Assembly (NCBI RefSeq): GCF_058153355.1
Contig: NZ_CM177019.1
Reading direction: 5' to 3' (one strand)
DNA length: 64,000 nt
Part shown: positions 40,263-49,125 of the stretch, in pieces
How positions within the stretch are numbered: the first letter of the stretch is position 1
Layout of the letters: each line of letters opens with the position of its first letter
Program-made: the position numbers and the translations under genes
The notes under the pieces: generated by a model
Databases searched by the model: none
The model's input: only the letters and a program-made list of their open reading frames with translations
Told to the model about the DNA's origin: nothing

Positions 40263-41264
40263 ATGAGTAAAGTTGGTATTAACGGTTTTGGTCGTATCGG
40301 TCGACTGGTGTTGCGTCGATTACTTGAAGTCAAAAGTAACATAGACATTGTCGCTATTAATGATCTCACTTCCCCAAAAATTCTCGCCTACCTGCTGAAA
40401 CATGATTCAAACTACGGACCGTTCCCTTGGAGCGTTGATTTTACGGAAGATTCACTTATCGTTGATGGAAAAAGTATCGCGGTTTACGCCGAAAAAGAGG
40501 CTAAAAATATTCCATGGAAAGCGAAAGGCGCAGAAATCATTGTCGAATGTACTGGCTTTTATACCTCCGCCGAGAAATCGCAGGCGCACCTTGATGCTGG
40601 TGCGAAGAAGGTGTTGATTTCCGCCCCTGCCGGTGAAATGAAAACCATCGTTTATAACGTCAATGACGACACACTGGATAGCAACGACACCATTGTTTCC
40701 GTGGCGTCATGCACCACTAACTGTCTTGCACCGATGGCCAAAGCCTTGCACGACAGTTTCGGAATAGAAGTCGGCACGATGACGACCATTCATGCCTATA
40801 CTGGCACCCAGTCACTGGTGGATGGCCCGCGAGGTAAAGATCTACGCGCTTCACGTGCAGCGGCAGAAAATATCATTCCCCACACTACAGGCGCGGCAAA
40901 AGCCATTGGTCTGGTGATCCCAGAACTGAGCGGCAAACTGAAAGGTCATGCGCAACGCGTACCCGTGAAAACAGGTTCGGTGACTGAACTGGTGTCTATT
41001 CTTGGAAAAAAAGTGACTGCCGAAGAGGTGAACAACGCGCTTAAAAACGCGACAAACAATAACGAGTCATTTGGTTATACCGATGAAGAAATAGTCTCTT
41101 CTGATATCATTGGCAGCCATTTCGGGTCGGTGTTTGATGCCACGCAAACCGAAATTACCGCCGTGGGCGATTTACAGTTGGTGAAAACGGTCGCCTGGTA
41201 TGATAACGAATATGGCTTCGTCACGCAGCTTATTCGCACCCTCGAAAAATTCGCTAAACTCTGA
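40263..41264 (+). CDS. gapC: glyceraldehyde-3-phosphate dehydrogenase C (intact; pseudogene in K-12)
   Basis: Uninterrupted 333-aa GAPDH: NAD-binding NGFGRIGR, catalytic ASCTTNCL. Confidence 0.9.
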
Positions 41265-42940: not shown

Positions 42941-43741
42941 TCAACGTAGCGAGCGACTTTCCATCGCCTCGATAAGCACAGCATCGTGTTTCAGCCTTTG
43001 CCATGCCTGGGTGACTTCTGCAGGAAAATCAACGTGAACGATAAAATCTCGCCCGCGTGGACCGTAGCCATCGCTATCATCGCGTAAACGTGGCAGCTCG
43101 CCAGTGAGTAGTGAGAGATAACGCTCAACCGGCCATAATCCTTGCAACGGATTAACAAAGATTACACTGTCTGCGTTGTTTCCTAGCTGAGGAACGAATC
43201 CGGGATAACTTAACCAGCGAGGTGCATCTGGATTGTCCCCGGTCATACGGCGGAACGTCGCCATCGTGCGCCGCTGCATGGTGGGGTCCTGAACAACGAT
43301 AGCCGTATGAACTCTTTCTACGGCCTGATTCAATAGCGCGATGCTAAAGCGTGCGTTTTCACCGCAGTTTGTTGACTGGTCTTCAATCCAGATTTTTTCA
43401 TGCGGAATGTGCCAGAACTGATGAGCGATATCCGCCAGGATGGTAGCTTCTGCTCTGCCAGTGGTGCGGATAGTGTTGTAGTGCGGATGCTGTGCGATGG
43501 CGCTATACAAAAAAGTTGTCGAGTGACCGATACCACCACTAATCAGTAGAGGAATTTGCTGATCGCGGGCAATCTTACATGCCGCATCGATAGTCGGCAT
43601 AACCGCATTGCCTGCAAGGATCACGCAATCGGCCTGATATGGCTCCTCTCCGGAGAAATCATCCTGCGCCAGCCACTGTCCGATAACATTTATGGCATCT
43701 ATGGTTGCCGTCGAAAGCGTCGGAAACGGGGTAATGTTCAT
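42941..43741 (-). CDS. ydcF: DUF218-family protein YdcF
   Basis: 266-aa ORF in conserved position downstream of hrpA. Confidence 0.8.
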
Positions 43742-44155
43742 GGTTCCTCCTTATAGTTCCCTTAAGAATACTGCGTGAGATAATAATGAGAAGCGGAGCC
43801 ATCTGAAAGGTAGTTGATGCTTTTTCTATCGCGCCATCGCGAACCAGACACTTGTTTAAGTCATACACTATTTGCGGAGAAACTGTTGATAAAACATCAA
43901 TAACATAATGTTCTATCATTTTTAAATGACAGATAATCTGGTGTGATATTTATATAATATTCATTCTTATATTTCTCAATCAAGGGGAACATTTGGTATC
44001 CAGTGTATCGTCCTCATCAACCAGATGTGTTATAAGCACTTTACCTCGTTAATTTTAATATTACGAGTTACAGGACAAAACATCACTCGAATTTAGTCCA
44101 GTAACTCGTAGTAGCCAGAGTATACGTACCCATTGATAAAATGTCTGGCAATAAA

Positions 44156-45013
44156 TTAACCAGCTATACTCGCACTCGTCGGCCCTGTTTCAATACTACC
44201 CACAATATCAATAATGTGCCCCCAGAACATATCATCATCGTTATAATATAATGAATAATCTCTATTATAATCCATAGTCAACTCAACAAGATTTATTCTG
44301 CTAACAAACATATCTTCTGTAATTTCTTCATCTTCTTCATCTTGAAGCCAGTCATTGGCCAATTCAGTTAATTGTTCTGCGGCATATTGCCTAAACTCCT
44401 GATCTTTTTGTTGCATATGACTACATAAAAATCGCAGATTTTCAAAAGCCTGTTGCCAGGTATATCTATCATTCTTATCTACTTCCATAGATACAGAAAT
44501 ATTCTGATCATTCCATTTCACTTCCCCGCTAAAACAGGAGTAGTCTTTATTAAGCACGAAAGTCCCCAATTGCTGATCTTCAACAACAACTGGTTTGCGA
44601 TATTCTTTCTGAATATTGAGCAGTTCCTCACACTGAACATGACTTTCAAGAACCTCAAGAACATAAAACCGATTATAAAACTCGGCTAACTTTCCTTCCG
44701 GCACGGTCCTGTCAATCAAATCTCGTACTCTCAGGCGATATATACCACCAGACTGCATATTAAACGGCCACGCACAGCCTTGAGTTTTCTCATTTTCTTC
44801 TGTTATCAACCAGTTGAGTCGTCCATCTCCAACGTGAATTTCTCCCGTCGTCAGACTCTTCCAGGCGAGTAAGTGTTCAACCGCTGTCCAGTAATTATCA
44901 CCGTTACTCTTACCCGCGCCACCGCCAGTATCACTAAGAAGAACGATAATTTCTTCTTCTGTATCTTTAAATGTATGACTAAATTTTTTGTATTCTTCAG
45001 AATTTAAGTCCAT
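44156..45013 (-). CDS. orphan hypothetical protein (285 aa, acidic, cytoplasmic) in low-GC islet; no family assigned
   Basis: Uninterrupted 858-nt ORF with own promoter space (45014-45163) downstream of the hrpA terminator; no signal peptide or TM segment; Asp/Glu-rich with acidic stretch QDEEDEEITEDMF; AT-rich codon usage unlike flanking core genes; no K-12 counterpart at this position. Confidence 0.65.
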   Translation of the reverse strand: MDLNSEEYKKFSHTFKDTEEEIIVLLSDTGGGAGKSNGDNYWTAVEHLLAWKSLTTGEIHVGDGRLNWLITEENEKTQGCAWPFNMQSGGIYRLRVRDLIDRTVPEGKLAEFYNRFYVLEVLESHVQCEELLNIQKEYRKPVVVEDQQLGTFVLNKDYSCFSGEVKWNDQNISVSMEVDKNDRYTWQQAFENLRFLCSHMQQKDQEFRQYAAEQLTELANDWLQDEEDEEITEDMFVSRINLVELTMDYNRDYSLYYNDDDMFWGHIIDIVGSIETGPTSASIAG

Positions 45014-45163
45014 TTTTGCCCCGGTGAAAAATAAATTTGATCAATAACATTGAGTGCCGCAGTAATGAATGTGTTATCGATAATTCAAAAATGACTGCGT
45101 ACGCCACAAGCCTACTCCCTACGCGACGTAAGGAGTACCGCCCTTGCTATTTTTCAGAATTCA

Positions 45164-45199
45164 TAAAAAAACCCGGCGCTAAATGCTTACCGGGTTTTA
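45164..45199 (-). terminator. hrpA intrinsic terminator
   Basis: ACCCGG...CCGGGT hairpin; on minus strand followed by a 7-U tract, 24 nt after the hrpA stop. Confidence 0.7.
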
Positions 45200-45222
45200 G
45201 ATTTATCAGGCAAATAGCAGTG

Positions 45223-48200
45223 TTAACCGCTAATCTGTTCCATCGCCTGCAGAATACGCTTATCTGAAATCGGATAGGGTGTACCGAGTTGTTGGGCAAA
45301 ATAGCTGACGCGCAACTCCTCTATCATCCAGCGTATCTCTTTCACGTCTTCATCCTCACGACGTGCAGGCGGCAGTTTGTTGATCCATTGCTGCCACGCC
45401 TGCTGGACGTTTTCAACTTTCAGCATCTGAGCACGGTCACGGTGCGGGTCAACCGCCAGTTTTTCCAGACGCTTTTCAATCGCCTGCAAATAACGCAGCG
45501 TGTCGCCCAGGCGTTTGAAGCCATTACCAGTGACAAAACCGCGATACACCAGCCCACTCATCTGCGCTTTAATGTCAGAAAGCCCCAGCGCCATGGTCAT
45601 ATCCACCCGCCCTTTCAGGCGTTTGTTGATATTGAACACCGCTGTGAGGATTTGCTCGACCTGCTTCGCAATATCCACCACCGTGTCGTTCAGTTCAGCG
45701 CGCACTTTTTCATGCAACGCAGCAAAGCCTTCTTCCGTCCAGACCGGGCCGCCCGCCTCATCAATCAATTTATCAACACCGCAGGAGATGCAGTCGTCAA
45801 TAAGATCCAGCACTTTACCGTACGGGTTAAAGTAGAGACCCAGCTTTGCTTTATTCGGCAGTTTCTCATGCAGATATTTAATTGGCGACGGAATGTTCAG
45901 CAACAGCAAGCGACGCAAACCACGCCACATAGCCTGCTGTTGTTCCTGCGGGTTATCAAAAAGCTTAATCGCTACGCTGTCACGCTCATCCACCAGCGCA
46001 GGCCAGGCCTTCACTTTGTAGTTGCCACGTTTCTGCTCGTAGTGATCCGGTAAATTACCGAAGCTCCAGATATGTAACCCGCTTTGCTCAATACCATCAT
46101 CGGCAACGGCGGAAAGCGTTTCCTGCACTTTGCCTTTCAGGGCATCTTTCAGATCCTGTAATGAGCGCCCTTCTTTTAGCTTCTTATTTTTGTCGTCCAC
46201 CACGCGGAAGGTGATTTTCAGGTGATCAGGCACCTGATCCCAGTGCCAGTCTTCGCGGTCAACGGTAACGCCGGTCATCCGCCGTAGCTCGCGCTCAAGG
46301 CTGTCGAGCAACGGCAGTTCCAACGGCGTGACGCGACCTAAAAACGCTTCGGCGTAGTTTGGCGCGGGCACAAAATTACGCCGTACCGGTTTCGGCAACG
46401 ATTTGATTAGAGCAATCACCAGTTCACGGCGCAGGCCTGGGATCTGCCACTCAAACCCGCTTTCCTCAACCTGGTTAAGTAACGGCAGCGGAATATGCAC
46501 GGTCACACCGTCAGCATCCGCCCCCGGCTCAAACTGATAGCTTAAACGCAGCTTGAGATTGCCCTGATGCCAGAAGTTCGGGTAATCCAGCTTGCTGATT
46601 TTTTCCGCCCCTTCTTTGATCAACATGCTCTTTTCAAAGTTGAGCAAATCAGGTGTTTCGCGGCTGACTTTTTTCCACCAACTATCAAAGTGTCGTGCGG
46701 AAATCACATCGTGGCTGATGCGCTGGTCGTAAAACTCAAACAACGTTTCGTCATCCACCAGAATATCGCGGCGACGTGATTTGTGTTCCAGTTCTTCCAC
46801 TTCTGCCCGTAGTTTCAGGTTTTCACGGAAGAATGCGTGACGCGTCTGCCAGTCACCTTCCACCAGCGCGTGGCGAATAAAAAGTTCACGACACAGCGCA
46901 GGATCAATCTGGCTGTAGTTGACCTTACGCGCAGCAACAATCGGCAACCCGTAAACGGTGACTTTTTCAGTTGCCATCACCGCGCCCTGCGCCCGTTCCC
47001 AGTGCGGTTCGCTGTAGGAGCGTTTAATCAAATGCTGGGCAACTGGCTCTACCCATTCCGGATCGATGCGTGCCGCAATGCGCCCCCACAGGCGGCTGGT
47101 TTCTACCAGTTCCGCCACCATTGCCCATTTCGGCGGCTTCTTGAATAAACCAGAACCGGGGAAGATGGAGAAACGCGCGTTACGTGCGCCGGTATATTCC
47201 TGTTTATCGGCATCTTTCATGCCGATATGCGAAAGCAAACCTGTCAGTAAGGCGATGTGAATTTCGCGATACTCCGCCGGTTCGCTGTTAACCGGAATGC
47301 CAAGTTCTTTCACCACCTGGCGCAACTGGGTGTAGATATCCTGCCATTCGCGCACGCGCAGATAGTTAAGGTAATCGGTACGGCACAGGCGACGGAAGGC
47401 GTTTGAAGAGAGCGCCTTTTGCTGCTCGCCGAGATAATTCCACAGATTTACAAACGCCAGGAAGTCGGATTCTTTATCGTGAAAGCGACGATGTTTTTCG
47501 TCCGATGCCTGCTGCTTGTCCATTGGCCGCTCACGCGGGTCCTGAATAGAGAGCGCGGAAGTGATAATCATCGCCTCACGCACGCAGCCATGTTTCTGCG
47601 CTTCCAACACCATTCGCGCCAGACGAGGATCGACTGGCAGTTGCGAGAGCTGGCGACCGAGCGGCGTCAGTTTATAGGCGCTGGCCTGTTCATCAGTGGT
47701 GATCGCGCCCAGCTCTTCGAGCAGACGCACGCCATCCTGGATATTGCGTTTATCCGGCGCTTCTACAAACGGGAACGCAGCGATATCGCCCAGCCCCAGC
47801 GCGGTCATCTGCAAAATAACCGAGGCCAGGTTGGTACGCAGAATCTCCGGATCGGTAAATTCCGGGCGCGAGAGGAAATCGTCTTCGGAATAAAGACGAA
47901 TGCAGATCCCTTCTGACACACGACCACAGCGGCCTTTACGCTGATTAGCTGAAGCCTGCGAAATGGGCTCAATCGGCAGACGCTGTACTTTGGTGCGATA
48001 GCTGTAGCGGCTAATACGCGCCGTACCTGGGTCGATAACGTATTTAATCCCCGGCACGGTCAGCGACGTTTCCGCGACGTTAGTCGCCAGCACAATGCGC
48101 CGTCCGCTGTGCGACTGGAAGACGCGGTTCTGCTCGCTGTTCGAAAGCCGTGCATAAAGCGGAAGAATTTCCGTATGGCGTAAGTTCAGCTTGTTCAGCG

Positions 48201-49125
48201 CATCGGCGGTATCGCGAATTTCTCGCTCGCCGCTCATAAAAATCAGAATGTCGCCAGGGCTTTCCTGGCTCAGTTCATCTACGGCATCGAAAATCGCCTG
48301 CAACTGGTCGCGCTCGGTGTCATCAGCTTCTTCAACAATCGGGCGATAGCGCACCTCCACCGGATAGGTACGACCGGAGACTTCGATAATCGGCGCATTA
48401 TTAAAGTGGCGCGAAAAGCGTTCCGGGTCGATAGTCGCGGAAGTGATAATGATTTTTAGGTCAGGACGCCGCGGCAGTAACTCTTTCAAATAACCGAGGA
48501 GAAAATCGATATTCAGGCTGCGTTCGTGCGCTTCGTCAATAATGATGGTGTCGTACTGCATCAGCAGGCGGTCTTGCTGGAGCTCCGCCAGCAGGATACC
48601 GTCGGTCATCAGCTTGACCATCGTGTTATCACTTACGTGATCGCTGAAACGCACTTTATACCCGATGCAACCGCCCGGCTCCGTTTTCAGCTCTTCCGCA
48701 ATACGGTTCGCCACCGTTCGTGCCGCCAGACGACGCGGCTGGGTATGGCCGATCAGCCCTTTAATCCCGCGGCCCAGTTCCATACAGATTTTCGGTAGCT
48801 GAGTCGTTTTCCCGGAACCCGTTTCCCCGGCGACGATCACCACCTGGTGATCACGGATTGCTTCGAGAATGTCCTGCTTTTTCTGACTAACCGGCAAATT
48901 GTCTGGATAAGTGATTTCCGGTCGTACTGCTTCACGCAGCAGGACTTTCCCTGCCGCCTGGTCAATCTCTTTCGCCATCTCCTGGAAAATGGCCTGTTGT
49001 GCATCAGGATTTTTAACCTTCTTCACGCCGTGCAGACGGCGGGAAAAACGCAGTCTGTCACGCAGCATCAGCGAATCCAACCGTTGCTGCAAGGCCGTAA
49101 AGGTCAATTTTTGTTGTTCTGTCAT
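45223..49125 (-). CDS. hrpA: ATP-dependent RNA helicase HrpA (DEAH box)
   Basis: 1300 aa; Walker A GETGSGKTTQ, DEAH box IIIDEAHERS, helicase C-terminal and OB-fold regions. Confidence 0.95.
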   Translation of the reverse strand: MTEQQKLTFTALQQRLDSLMLRDRLRFSRRLHGVKKVKNPDAQQAIFQEMAKEIDQAAGKVLLREAVRPEITYPDNLPVSQKKQDILEAIRDHQVVIVAGETGSGKTTQLPKICMELGRGIKGLIGHTQPRRLAARTVANRIAEELKTEPGGCIGYKVRFSDHVSDNTMVKLMTDGILLAELQQDRLLMQYDTIIIDEAHERSLNIDFLLGYLKELLPRRPDLKIIITSATIDPERFSRHFNNAPIIEVSGRTYPVEVRYRPIVEEADDTERDQLQAIFDAVDELSQESPGDILIFMSGEREIRDTADALNKLNLRHTEILPLYARLSNSEQNRVFQSHSGRRIVLATNVAETSLTVPGIKYVIDPGTARISRYSYRTKVQRLPIEPISQASANQRKGRCGRVSEGICIRLYSEDDFLSRPEFTDPEILRTNLASVILQMTALGLGDIAAFPFVEAPDKRNIQDGVRLLEELGAITTDEQASAYKLTPLGRQLSQLPVDPRLARMVLEAQKHGCVREAMIITSALSIQDPRERPMDKQQASDEKHRRFHDKESDFLAFVNLWNYLGEQQKALSSNAFRRLCRTDYLNYLRVREWQDIYTQLRQVVKELGIPVNSEPAEYREIHIALLTGLLSHIGMKDADKQEYTGARNARFSIFPGSGLFKKPPKWAMVAELVETSRLWGRIAARIDPEWVEPVAQHLIKRSYSEPHWERAQGAVMATEKVTVYGLPIVAARKVNYSQIDPALCRELFIRHALVEGDWQTRHAFFRENLKLRAEVEELEHKSRRRDILVDDETLFEFYDQRISHDVISARHFDSWWKKVSRETPDLLNFEKSMLIKEGAEKISKLDYPNFWHQGNLKLRLSYQFEPGADADGVTVHIPLPLLNQVEESGFEWQIPGLRRELVIALIKSLPKPVRRNFVPAPNYAEAFLGRVTPLELPLLDSLERELRRMTGVTVDREDWHWDQVPDHLKITFRVVDDKNKKLKEGRSLQDLKDALKGKVQETLSAVADDGIEQSGLHIWSFGNLPDHYEQKRGNYKVKAWPALVDERDSVAIKLFDNPQEQQQAMWRGLRRLLLLNIPSPIKYLHEKLPNKAKLGLYFNPYGKVLDLIDDCISCGVDKLIDEAGGPVWTEEGFAALHEKVRAELNDTVVDIAKQVEQILTAVFNINKRLKGRVDMTMALGLSDIKAQMSGLVYRGFVTGNGFKRLGDTLRYLQAIEKRLEKLAVDPHRDRAQMLKVENVQQAWQQWINKLPPARREDEDVKEIRWMIEELRVSYFAQQLGTPYPISDKRILQAMEQISG

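Follow-up and report, generated by a model that had tools for sequence, protein, structure and literature searches.

Between the core genes ydcF and hrpA, the stretch of contig NZ_CM177019.1 (assembly GCF_058153355.1) analyzed here, hereafter called the window (64,000 nucleotides), carries a low-GC islet with one open reading frame (ORF) for an acidic protein of 285 residues, which belongs to the DUF7021+DUF2262 family. This product is rather probably an orphan immunity-type protein, which would neutralize an incoming interbacterial toxin. Several observations lead to this reading. Relatives of the gene sit in toxin-free arrays that match the definition of polyimmunity loci, and a SUKH gene holds the same chromosomal slot in about 186-190 Escherichia coli genomes. 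A fusion to DUF5713 occurs in one member, and the family has a patchy spread of the kind expected from horizontal gene transfer, on mobilizable and conjugative elements and on megaplasmids. Alleles in the slot diverge beyond their flanks, yet they keep a low ratio of nonsynonymous to synonymous substitution rates (dN/dS). Finally, the protein has no signal peptide, transmembrane segment or enzymatic domain, and an acidic isoelectric point (pI) is common to all homologues examined. Because the strict test, that of a toxin gene next to the family gene, failed, the protein is best described as one that probably works like an immunity protein, not as a member of a defined Imm family.

In the proposed mechanism, the protein would stand alone in the cytoplasm, where it would bind and neutralize a toxin domain coming from competing bacteria. 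Delivery of the toxin might be by contact-dependent systems, by Type VI (T6SS) or Type VII (T7SS) secretion systems, or by similar polymorphic-toxin systems. A basic toxin, possibly one that targets nucleic acids, would go well with the acidic surface and a variable acidic loop. The gene itself is one member of a small, strain-variable and co-directional hrpA-ydcF islet that deletions have eroded in most lineages. The analysis shows to which family the protein belongs, its fold, the constraint on it, the history of the islet and the polyimmunity surroundings of its relatives; the function, the way of binding and the nature of the toxin are inferred from these.

The protein and its family

The gene and its parts lie as follows, positions being counted from the first nucleotide of the window.

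44156..45013 (stop codon included), minus strand: DUF7021+DUF2262 gene, 285 residues, from the ORF list, Pfam domains, homologues, dN/dS and an AlphaFold2 model
44600..44992, minus strand: DUF7021 N-terminal domain, residues 8-138, OB-like five-stranded barrel
44165..44578, minus strand: DUF2262 C-terminal domain, residues 146-283
44315..44347, minus strand: acidic loop QDEEDEEITED, at about residues 223-233, from the alignment and with lower predicted local distance difference test (pLDDT) values

Judged from its two Pfam domains, its hundreds of full-length homologues and a dN/dS of 0.12-0.22, the ORF is a real gene. DUF2262 (PF10020) is matched at E 4.2e-43 over the entire model (positions 1-142 of 142; residues 146-283), and DUF7021 (PF22886) at E 5.8e-31 over residues 8-138. 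The initial annotation had taken the product for an orphan of unknown family, whereas it is a full-length member of a family with 1,512 representatives at E <= 1e-3 (cluster representatives at the 50% identity level), and RefSeq already uses the name "DUF2262 domain-containing protein" for it in the four E. coli genomes with the identical locus. A word-indexed search listed 112 homologues, 106 of them with both domains. The annotation was right about the general character of the protein, which is strongly acidic (pI 4.4; 54 Asp and Glu residues versus 25 Lys and Arg) and without signal peptide or transmembrane helix, the highest 19-residue Kyte-Doolittle mean being 0.73, with no hydrophobic segment. 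The pI is acidic in all 51 homologues examined, with a median of 4.4. No known enzymatic domain was detected in the protein with Pfam.

An AlphaFold2 model was computed from a 51-sequence alignment and has a pLDDT of 93.7. Following the N-terminal barrel, the DUF2262 domain is predicted to be an alpha+beta domain in which four strands, a long helical hairpin and the acidic loop precede four further strands (beta4-alpha2-beta4). The loop varies in length from 9 to 30 residues, with 3-15 Asp or Glu residues, among 11 sampled homologues, and it is acidic in all of them. Elsewhere, conservation is high: the motifs AAxxLTELANDW and YYNDDDMFWGH are conserved in the family, and Asp259, His266 and a C-terminal Gly are invariant across the homologues.

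Comparisons with databases brought little beyond the family itself. No match was found in the PDB by sequence, with either the single sequence or a profile. The structure-based search that had been recommended at the outset did return relatives in the Foldseek AFDB50 database, but all of them are unannotated DUF2262 proteins. The NCBIfam and PHROGs scans gave insignificant hits only: the BPTD_3080 restriction endonuclease (E 0.012, with 13.6 bits where the cutoff is 800) in the former, and an HNH PHROG (E 0.0065 over 44 residues) in the latter. The searchable literature contains no solved structure, function or mention of the DUF2262/DUF7021 family, and DUF2262, DUF1877 and DUF1963 are not mentioned in one file of the supplement to Zhang et al. 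(2012).

Genomic context and distribution of the relatives

Heterogeneous polyimmunity loci have been described as runs of genes in the same orientation, with short gaps, no toxins and strain-variable contents, which harbor SUKH, SuFu and Imm families (Zhang et al., 2012; PMC3482391). Several Imm families, such as Imm47 and Imm48, were assigned from polyimmunity context alone, and SUKH is the broadest immunity superfamily known (PMC3482391). Relatives of the window gene are found in loci of this kind, and the window itself holds the remnant of a five-gene co-directional islet.

Genes of the family occur in three sorts of surroundings. Some are solo genes wedged among housekeeping genes (those for pyruvate phosphate dikinase, AspRS, SerRS, XylE, IscS, or rplM-rpsI), as in E. 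coli. Others are cargo of mobilizable or conjugative elements of Firmicutes. Still others belong to long arrays of co-directional, tightly spaced genes; out of 81 family genes, 28 form part of co-directional runs that count five genes or more within ±6 kb of the family gene. Among the array genes from 26 loci are SuFu (three), ankyrin, DUF4241, DUF1963, DUF5713, NADAR and Imm-NTF2, and the largest array proteins are multi-domain polyimmunity proteins of the TPR+SuFu and SuFu/Imm33 types. The arrays also hold enzymes, GNATs and NUDIX proteins among them. In 14 loci, a 77-residue gene directly downstream of the family gene matches Imm17 (E 1.6e-6). It is in gut Clostridia that such arrays reach more than 30 genes, with Imm17, Imm33, Imm51, Imm-NTF2, SuFu, ankyrin and NADAR genes in them, and scans of the array genes detected no toxin domain. 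P0164, a member of the family, carries a fusion to DUF5713; in an array DUF5713 stands as a gene of its own, and it counts here as an array member, not as a proven immunity domain. In another, P0243, the N-terminal domain is duplicated.

Such an array is seen most clearly in Pseudoflavonifractor sp. An184 (loci L097 and L099; NFKI01000028), in which a run of over 30 co-directional genes, with little space between them, includes two DUF7021+DUF2262 paralogues. They are accompanied by DUF6138 (two), ankyrin, DUF1963, DKNYY, DUF5713, DUF4241, Imm-NTF2 (PF15655), NADAR, Imm51 (PF15595) and PTS_2-RNA genes, and the array is well stocked with candidate immunity and antidote families. It also contains DUF6572, DUF6881, DUF6966 and DUF5071 genes. 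NADAR and PTS_2-RNA/KptA are ADP-ribose-processing enzymes. Upstream of the array, on the opposite strand, lies a gene for an nSTAND3 NTPase, and NACHT and KAP NTPase genes are found near one homologue of Bacteroidota.

The family is spread over Firmicutes, Bacteroidota, Actinomycetes and Proteobacteria. It is most numerous in gut Clostridia and is also found in Escherichia, Pasteurellaceae, Neisseriaceae/Cardiobacteriaceae, Pseudomonas, Bacteroidota, Fusobacterium, Actinomyces/Schaalia and Bacilli, a patchy distribution that resembles the product of horizontal gene transfer. Plasmid records with a family gene comprise three Bacillus (conjugative) megaplasmids and one mislabelled Fusobacterium chromosome. 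The latter, NZ_CP084075.1 of Fusobacterium vincentii (L103), is listed as a plasmid in PLSDB but, with 2.1 Mb, evidently represents a chromosome, in which rplM-rpsI and an IS200-like transposase ORF come immediately before the DUF2262 homologue.

Occupancy and history of the ydcF-hrpA slot

The islet and the genes that border it are placed in the window as follows.

42941..43741, minus strand: ydcF (DUF218), flanking core gene, from the ORF and the RefSeq annotation of the syntenic locus
45223..49125, minus strand: hrpA (ATP-dependent RNA helicase), flanking core gene, from the ORF and the RefSeq annotation of the syntenic locus
43811..45150, no strand: islet proper, without counterpart in empty ydcF-hrpA gaps, from blastn against the empty loci L003 and L005
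43857..43922, minus strand: remnant, about the last 20 codons of a fifth islet gene (the 125/126-residue ORF of O157:H7 and others); the equivalent stretch is a partial pseudogene in RefSeq, and blastn matches it to loci L004 and L017

The islet stands out by its composition, as had been noted at first sight. Across approximately 43750-45100 the GC content drops to 0.33-0.41, whereas ydcF and hrpA have about 0.5-0.55; the GC content of the DUF2262 ORF is 0.386, that of the flanks about 0.52, and GC at third codon positions is 0.33 in the ORF, 0.51 in ydcF and 0.61 in hrpA. A single uninterrupted ORF on the minus strand, placed after the hrpA terminator, and the lack of the islet in most E. coli genomes were likewise confirmed, the ydcF-hrpA gap of most strains being about 270 bp (as in L003, strain E2348/69, and in L005). 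By contrast, the islet is not the small single-gene insertion for which it had been taken; it represents the remains of a co-directional islet of five genes and is related to the empty loci by replacement. Homology with L003 and L005 stops at 43810 and restarts at 45151/45152 in blastn comparisons, and about 130 bp of unrelated sequence that the empty loci hold between these two endpoints are missing from the window, which makes this a replacement and not a clean insertion. The remnant, MIEHYVI...DVLSTVSPQIVYD, corresponds to the C-terminus of the O157 ORF.

The content of the slot varies from strain to strain. Among 5,426 complete E. coli genomes, four have the 1.48-kb version of the window at a coverage of at least 80%, the DUF2262 gene being always in the ydcF-hrpA slot with 91-99% nucleotide identity. 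A SUKH cassette is present in 186-190 genomes and a cluster of four co-directional ORFs (141, 112, 143, and 125 residues) in 587 (about 11%), including those of O157:H7; in most genomes the slot is empty. Occupied states in the genus are listed below.

E. coli with allele P0008 (82% identical): complete co-directional islet, in the order hrpA, DUF2262 gene, ORFs of 141, 112, 80 and 125 residues, ydcF
Escherichia sp. MOD1-EC7003: order as in the P0008 strains, DUF2262 gene frameshifted
E. fergusonii (CP040805, L108:6001-8056): disrupted DUF2262 copy in the slot
E. albertii NBRC 107761 (L018:5174-7001): DUF2262 allele of 291 residues in the slot
E. coli, 186-190 genomes: SUKH (SMI1/KNR4) gene and 99-residue ORF, adjoining the same remnant of the 125-residue ORF

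The third of the small islet ORFs has 80 residues with allele P0008 and 143-144 residues in other strains. The DUF2262 gene of E. fergusonii CP040805 is cut to 273 residues, and a separate DUF2262 fragment of 63 residues lies about 1 kb downstream, which suggests an insertion or rearrangement within the gene. The allele of E. albertii is only 51% identical in protein, versus 97.8% for HrpA; it is followed in the slot by an ORF of at least 233 residues that matches no family and has a hydrophobic segment at its N-terminal end. In the SUKH cassette, exemplified by L002:4390-5180 of E. coli Eco_23-3511, the gene for the 164-residue SUKH/SMI1-KNR4 protein is on the opposite strand and overlaps the 99-residue ORF; one genome with this cassette, H43, has an IS1 insertion. 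In the four-ORF cluster, as in L004:4116-5804 of E. coli O157:H7 7386WT, the 125-residue ORF is the last gene. Neither the four O157-type ORFs nor the 99-residue partner of the SUKH gene gave a match in Pfam or NCBIfam, or a tblastn match in the 96 other loci searched. The four O157-type ORFs may represent further undescribed immunity-type genes.

Substitution rates bear on the age of the alleles. Synonymous divergence (dS) between the DUF2262 alleles is 0.25-0.29, approximately three times that of hrpA (0.07-0.09), which indicates that the alleles are old and have been exchanged by recombination. The dN/dS of 0.12-0.22 between the E. coli alleles shows that purifying selection has been kept. 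Among islet-bearing strains, the dS of ydcF ranges from 0.06 to 0.19, above that of hrpA, and its pairwise pattern does not follow the DUF2262 alleles; the comparison points to mosaic recombination around the islet. The slot is therefore an islet of long standing whose content differs between strains and which is gone from most E. coli; one state of its decay is seen in the window. No description of a ydcF-hrpA hotspot was found in the searchable literature.

Signals around the gene

Three further elements were recognized in the intergenic portions of the locus.

45165..45198, minus strand: intrinsic terminator hairpin of hrpA, AAAACCCGG...CCGGGTTTTTTT, by direct sequence reading and conserved in the empty loci L003 and L005
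44059..44113, minus strand: inverted repeat with 22-nt arms, 86% complementary, and an 11-nt loop, about 45 nt 3' of the ORF stop
45058..45099, no strand: imperfect palindrome centered on TATCGATA, 45-85 nt 5' of the start codon

The terminator hairpin separates the stop of hrpA (45223) from the ORF start. In the interval from this terminator to the ATG, the consensus scan made no sigma-70 call. The palindrome may be a candidate operator or promoter-region element. The inverted repeat may serve as a terminator or as an RNA-stabilizing hairpin; no clear T-run follows it, and the terminator scan made no call there. At the borders of the islet, the search for signatures of mobile elements yielded just short direct repeats of chance level. 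No Rfam match was obtained at the islet, and no recombinase adjoins it in Escherichia.

Elsewhere in the window, positions 40263-41264 (plus strand) hold an intact gene for a type I glyceraldehyde-3-phosphate dehydrogenase of 333 residues, annotated by RefSeq as an intact "gap" in related strains. This is the position of gapC, which is a pseudogene in K-12.

Weighing of the explanations

A number of points weigh against an immunity function. A cognate toxin was not found beside any family member, the neighbors in about 90 loci have no toxin domain, and scans of large neighbors with NCBIfam and Pfam gave housekeeping enzymes or SuFu/TPR/Imm33 polyimmunity proteins. In neither these loci nor the window does a toxin-domain gene lie directly upstream in the same direction; the genes upstream of the solo copies are housekeeping genes, and in the window this gene is hrpA. 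The E. coli copy is solo, and with 285 residues and two domains the protein is larger than most Imm families. The weakness of the assignment is that it draws on association. A different reading is another accessory role in conflict or stress, in which the protein would be cargo of mobile elements and would act as an enzymatic antidote to the modification made by a toxin, or as a binder of small molecules, without binding a toxin. The strictly invariant Asp259, His266 and C-terminal Gly and the near-invariant DDDMFWGH amount to more conservation than a fast co-evolving binding surface needs, and genuine enzymes, i.e., NADAR, PTS_2-RNA/KptA, GNATs and NUDIX proteins, occur in the same arrays. 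Many solo copies of the family, moreover, are without any conflict context. We regard such a role as unlikely, though worth keeping in mind. A bolder version, quite improbable in our estimation, would make DUF2262 a new catalytic or ligand-dependent antidote domain carried on an OB-like targeting barrel, which would repair or intercept the damage done by a class of toxins that has no known immunity. This proposal would build on the invariant residues, the DDDMFWGH motif and the obligatory C-terminal Gly, by analogy with the NADAR/KptA neighbors, which reverse ADP-ribosylation. The slot would then be an Escherichia-wide polyimmunity islet with five more undescribed immunity families (141, 112, 144, 125, and 99 residues).

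The initial annotation had placed the gene among defense, anti-defense or immunity functions; the genomic context supports immunity, and the other two are left without support. As an anti-defense protein, the product would be a DNA mimic or anti-restriction protein of mobile elements, whose acidic surface imitates DNA and blocks the nucleases of a new host. This has little probability, as the family gave no match in 50,697 phage records and only one locus in 2.9 million viral contigs, versus 279 in 100,044 genomes. In Pfam, PHROGs and the PDB, the protein did not resemble ArdA, Ocr or any further known mimic; the combination of carriage on phages or in leading regions with similarity to ArdA, Ocr or Ugi-like mimics was not observed either. 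In addition, the chromosomal Escherichia copy lies between core genes and not on a mobile element, and the neighbors in the arrays are immunity families, not anti-restriction genes. We give hardly any credence to a single-gene anti-phage defense protein or HEPN-type nuclease, for which the low-GC, strain-variable islet between core genes and the NACHT, KAP and nSTAND3 NTPase genes mentioned above might speak. The best PADLOC match is JukB, at E 0.039 over 39 residues; the protein has no nuclease, NTPase or other effector domain; and the neighbors in 80 loci are not defense systems. The RFLCSH stretch, which had been likened to the R-x4-H signature of HEPN nucleases, is not conserved: the column of R194 is Arg in 14 of 51 homologues and that of H199 is His in 5 of 51, with no HEPN match in Pfam. 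It is similarly most improbable that the protein is an SSB/RPA-like nucleic acid binder in DNA or RNA metabolism, possibly linked to the RNA helicase HrpA. Unlike the OB-fold binders of single-stranded DNA (SSB, RPA, PriB), the domain in the window is acidic, has no sequence similarity to them and occurs in an unrelated context. The OB-like barrel most likely represents reuse of the fold for protein binding.

Significance

If the orphan immunity reading is true, a widespread DUF family of two-domain proteins, enriched in gut and oral bacteria, gains its first hypothesis of function. It would also make hrpA-ydcF a small strain-variable immunity islet of Escherichia, filled with SUKH, DUF2262 or four family-less ORFs. 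Orphan immunity genes affect whether a strain survives contact-dependent killing in the gut, and the islet could therefore mark past exposure to toxins. To specialists of interbacterial antagonism, the immunity reading will be plausible rather than surprising. In practice it yields a few genes that can be put to the test, and it does not bring to light a new biological principle.

Comparison with known systems

With respect to the Pfam families DUF2262 and DUF7021, the window protein does not differ from the other members, being full-length and having the usual two-domain architecture. It resembles the immunity proteins of polymorphic-toxin systems (PMC3482391) in being small and soluble, in its conserved Trp and acidic motifs, in having relatives in polyimmunity arrays, and in a locus content that varies from strain to strain; one relative carries a fusion to another array domain. 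DUF2262 was not found among the families named in the searchable portion of Zhang et al. (2012).

The SUKH (SMI1/KNR4) proteins share with it the ydcF-hrpA slot, which they occupy in about 190 E. coli genomes, alongside the same remnant of the fifth gene. In contrast, the window protein has no sequence match to SUKH models, and its fold and topology are different (OB barrel followed by beta4-alpha2-beta4).

The acquired interbacterial defense (AID) clusters and orphan immunity islets are described as consisting of orphan immunity genes without toxin that are strain-variable, sometimes mobile, and protective against the toxins of non-kin (Ross et al., bioRxiv 10.1101/471110); a putative T6SS islet of Salmonella Typhi has been described in this connection (PMC7400221). 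Homology to known T6SS immunity genes served to define those clusters, which were reportedly tested by experiment (10.1101/471110; PMC7400221); the Escherichia islet has no adjacent recombinase. What the two appear to have in common is the concept of orphan, strain-variable immunity genes that are carried without a toxin.

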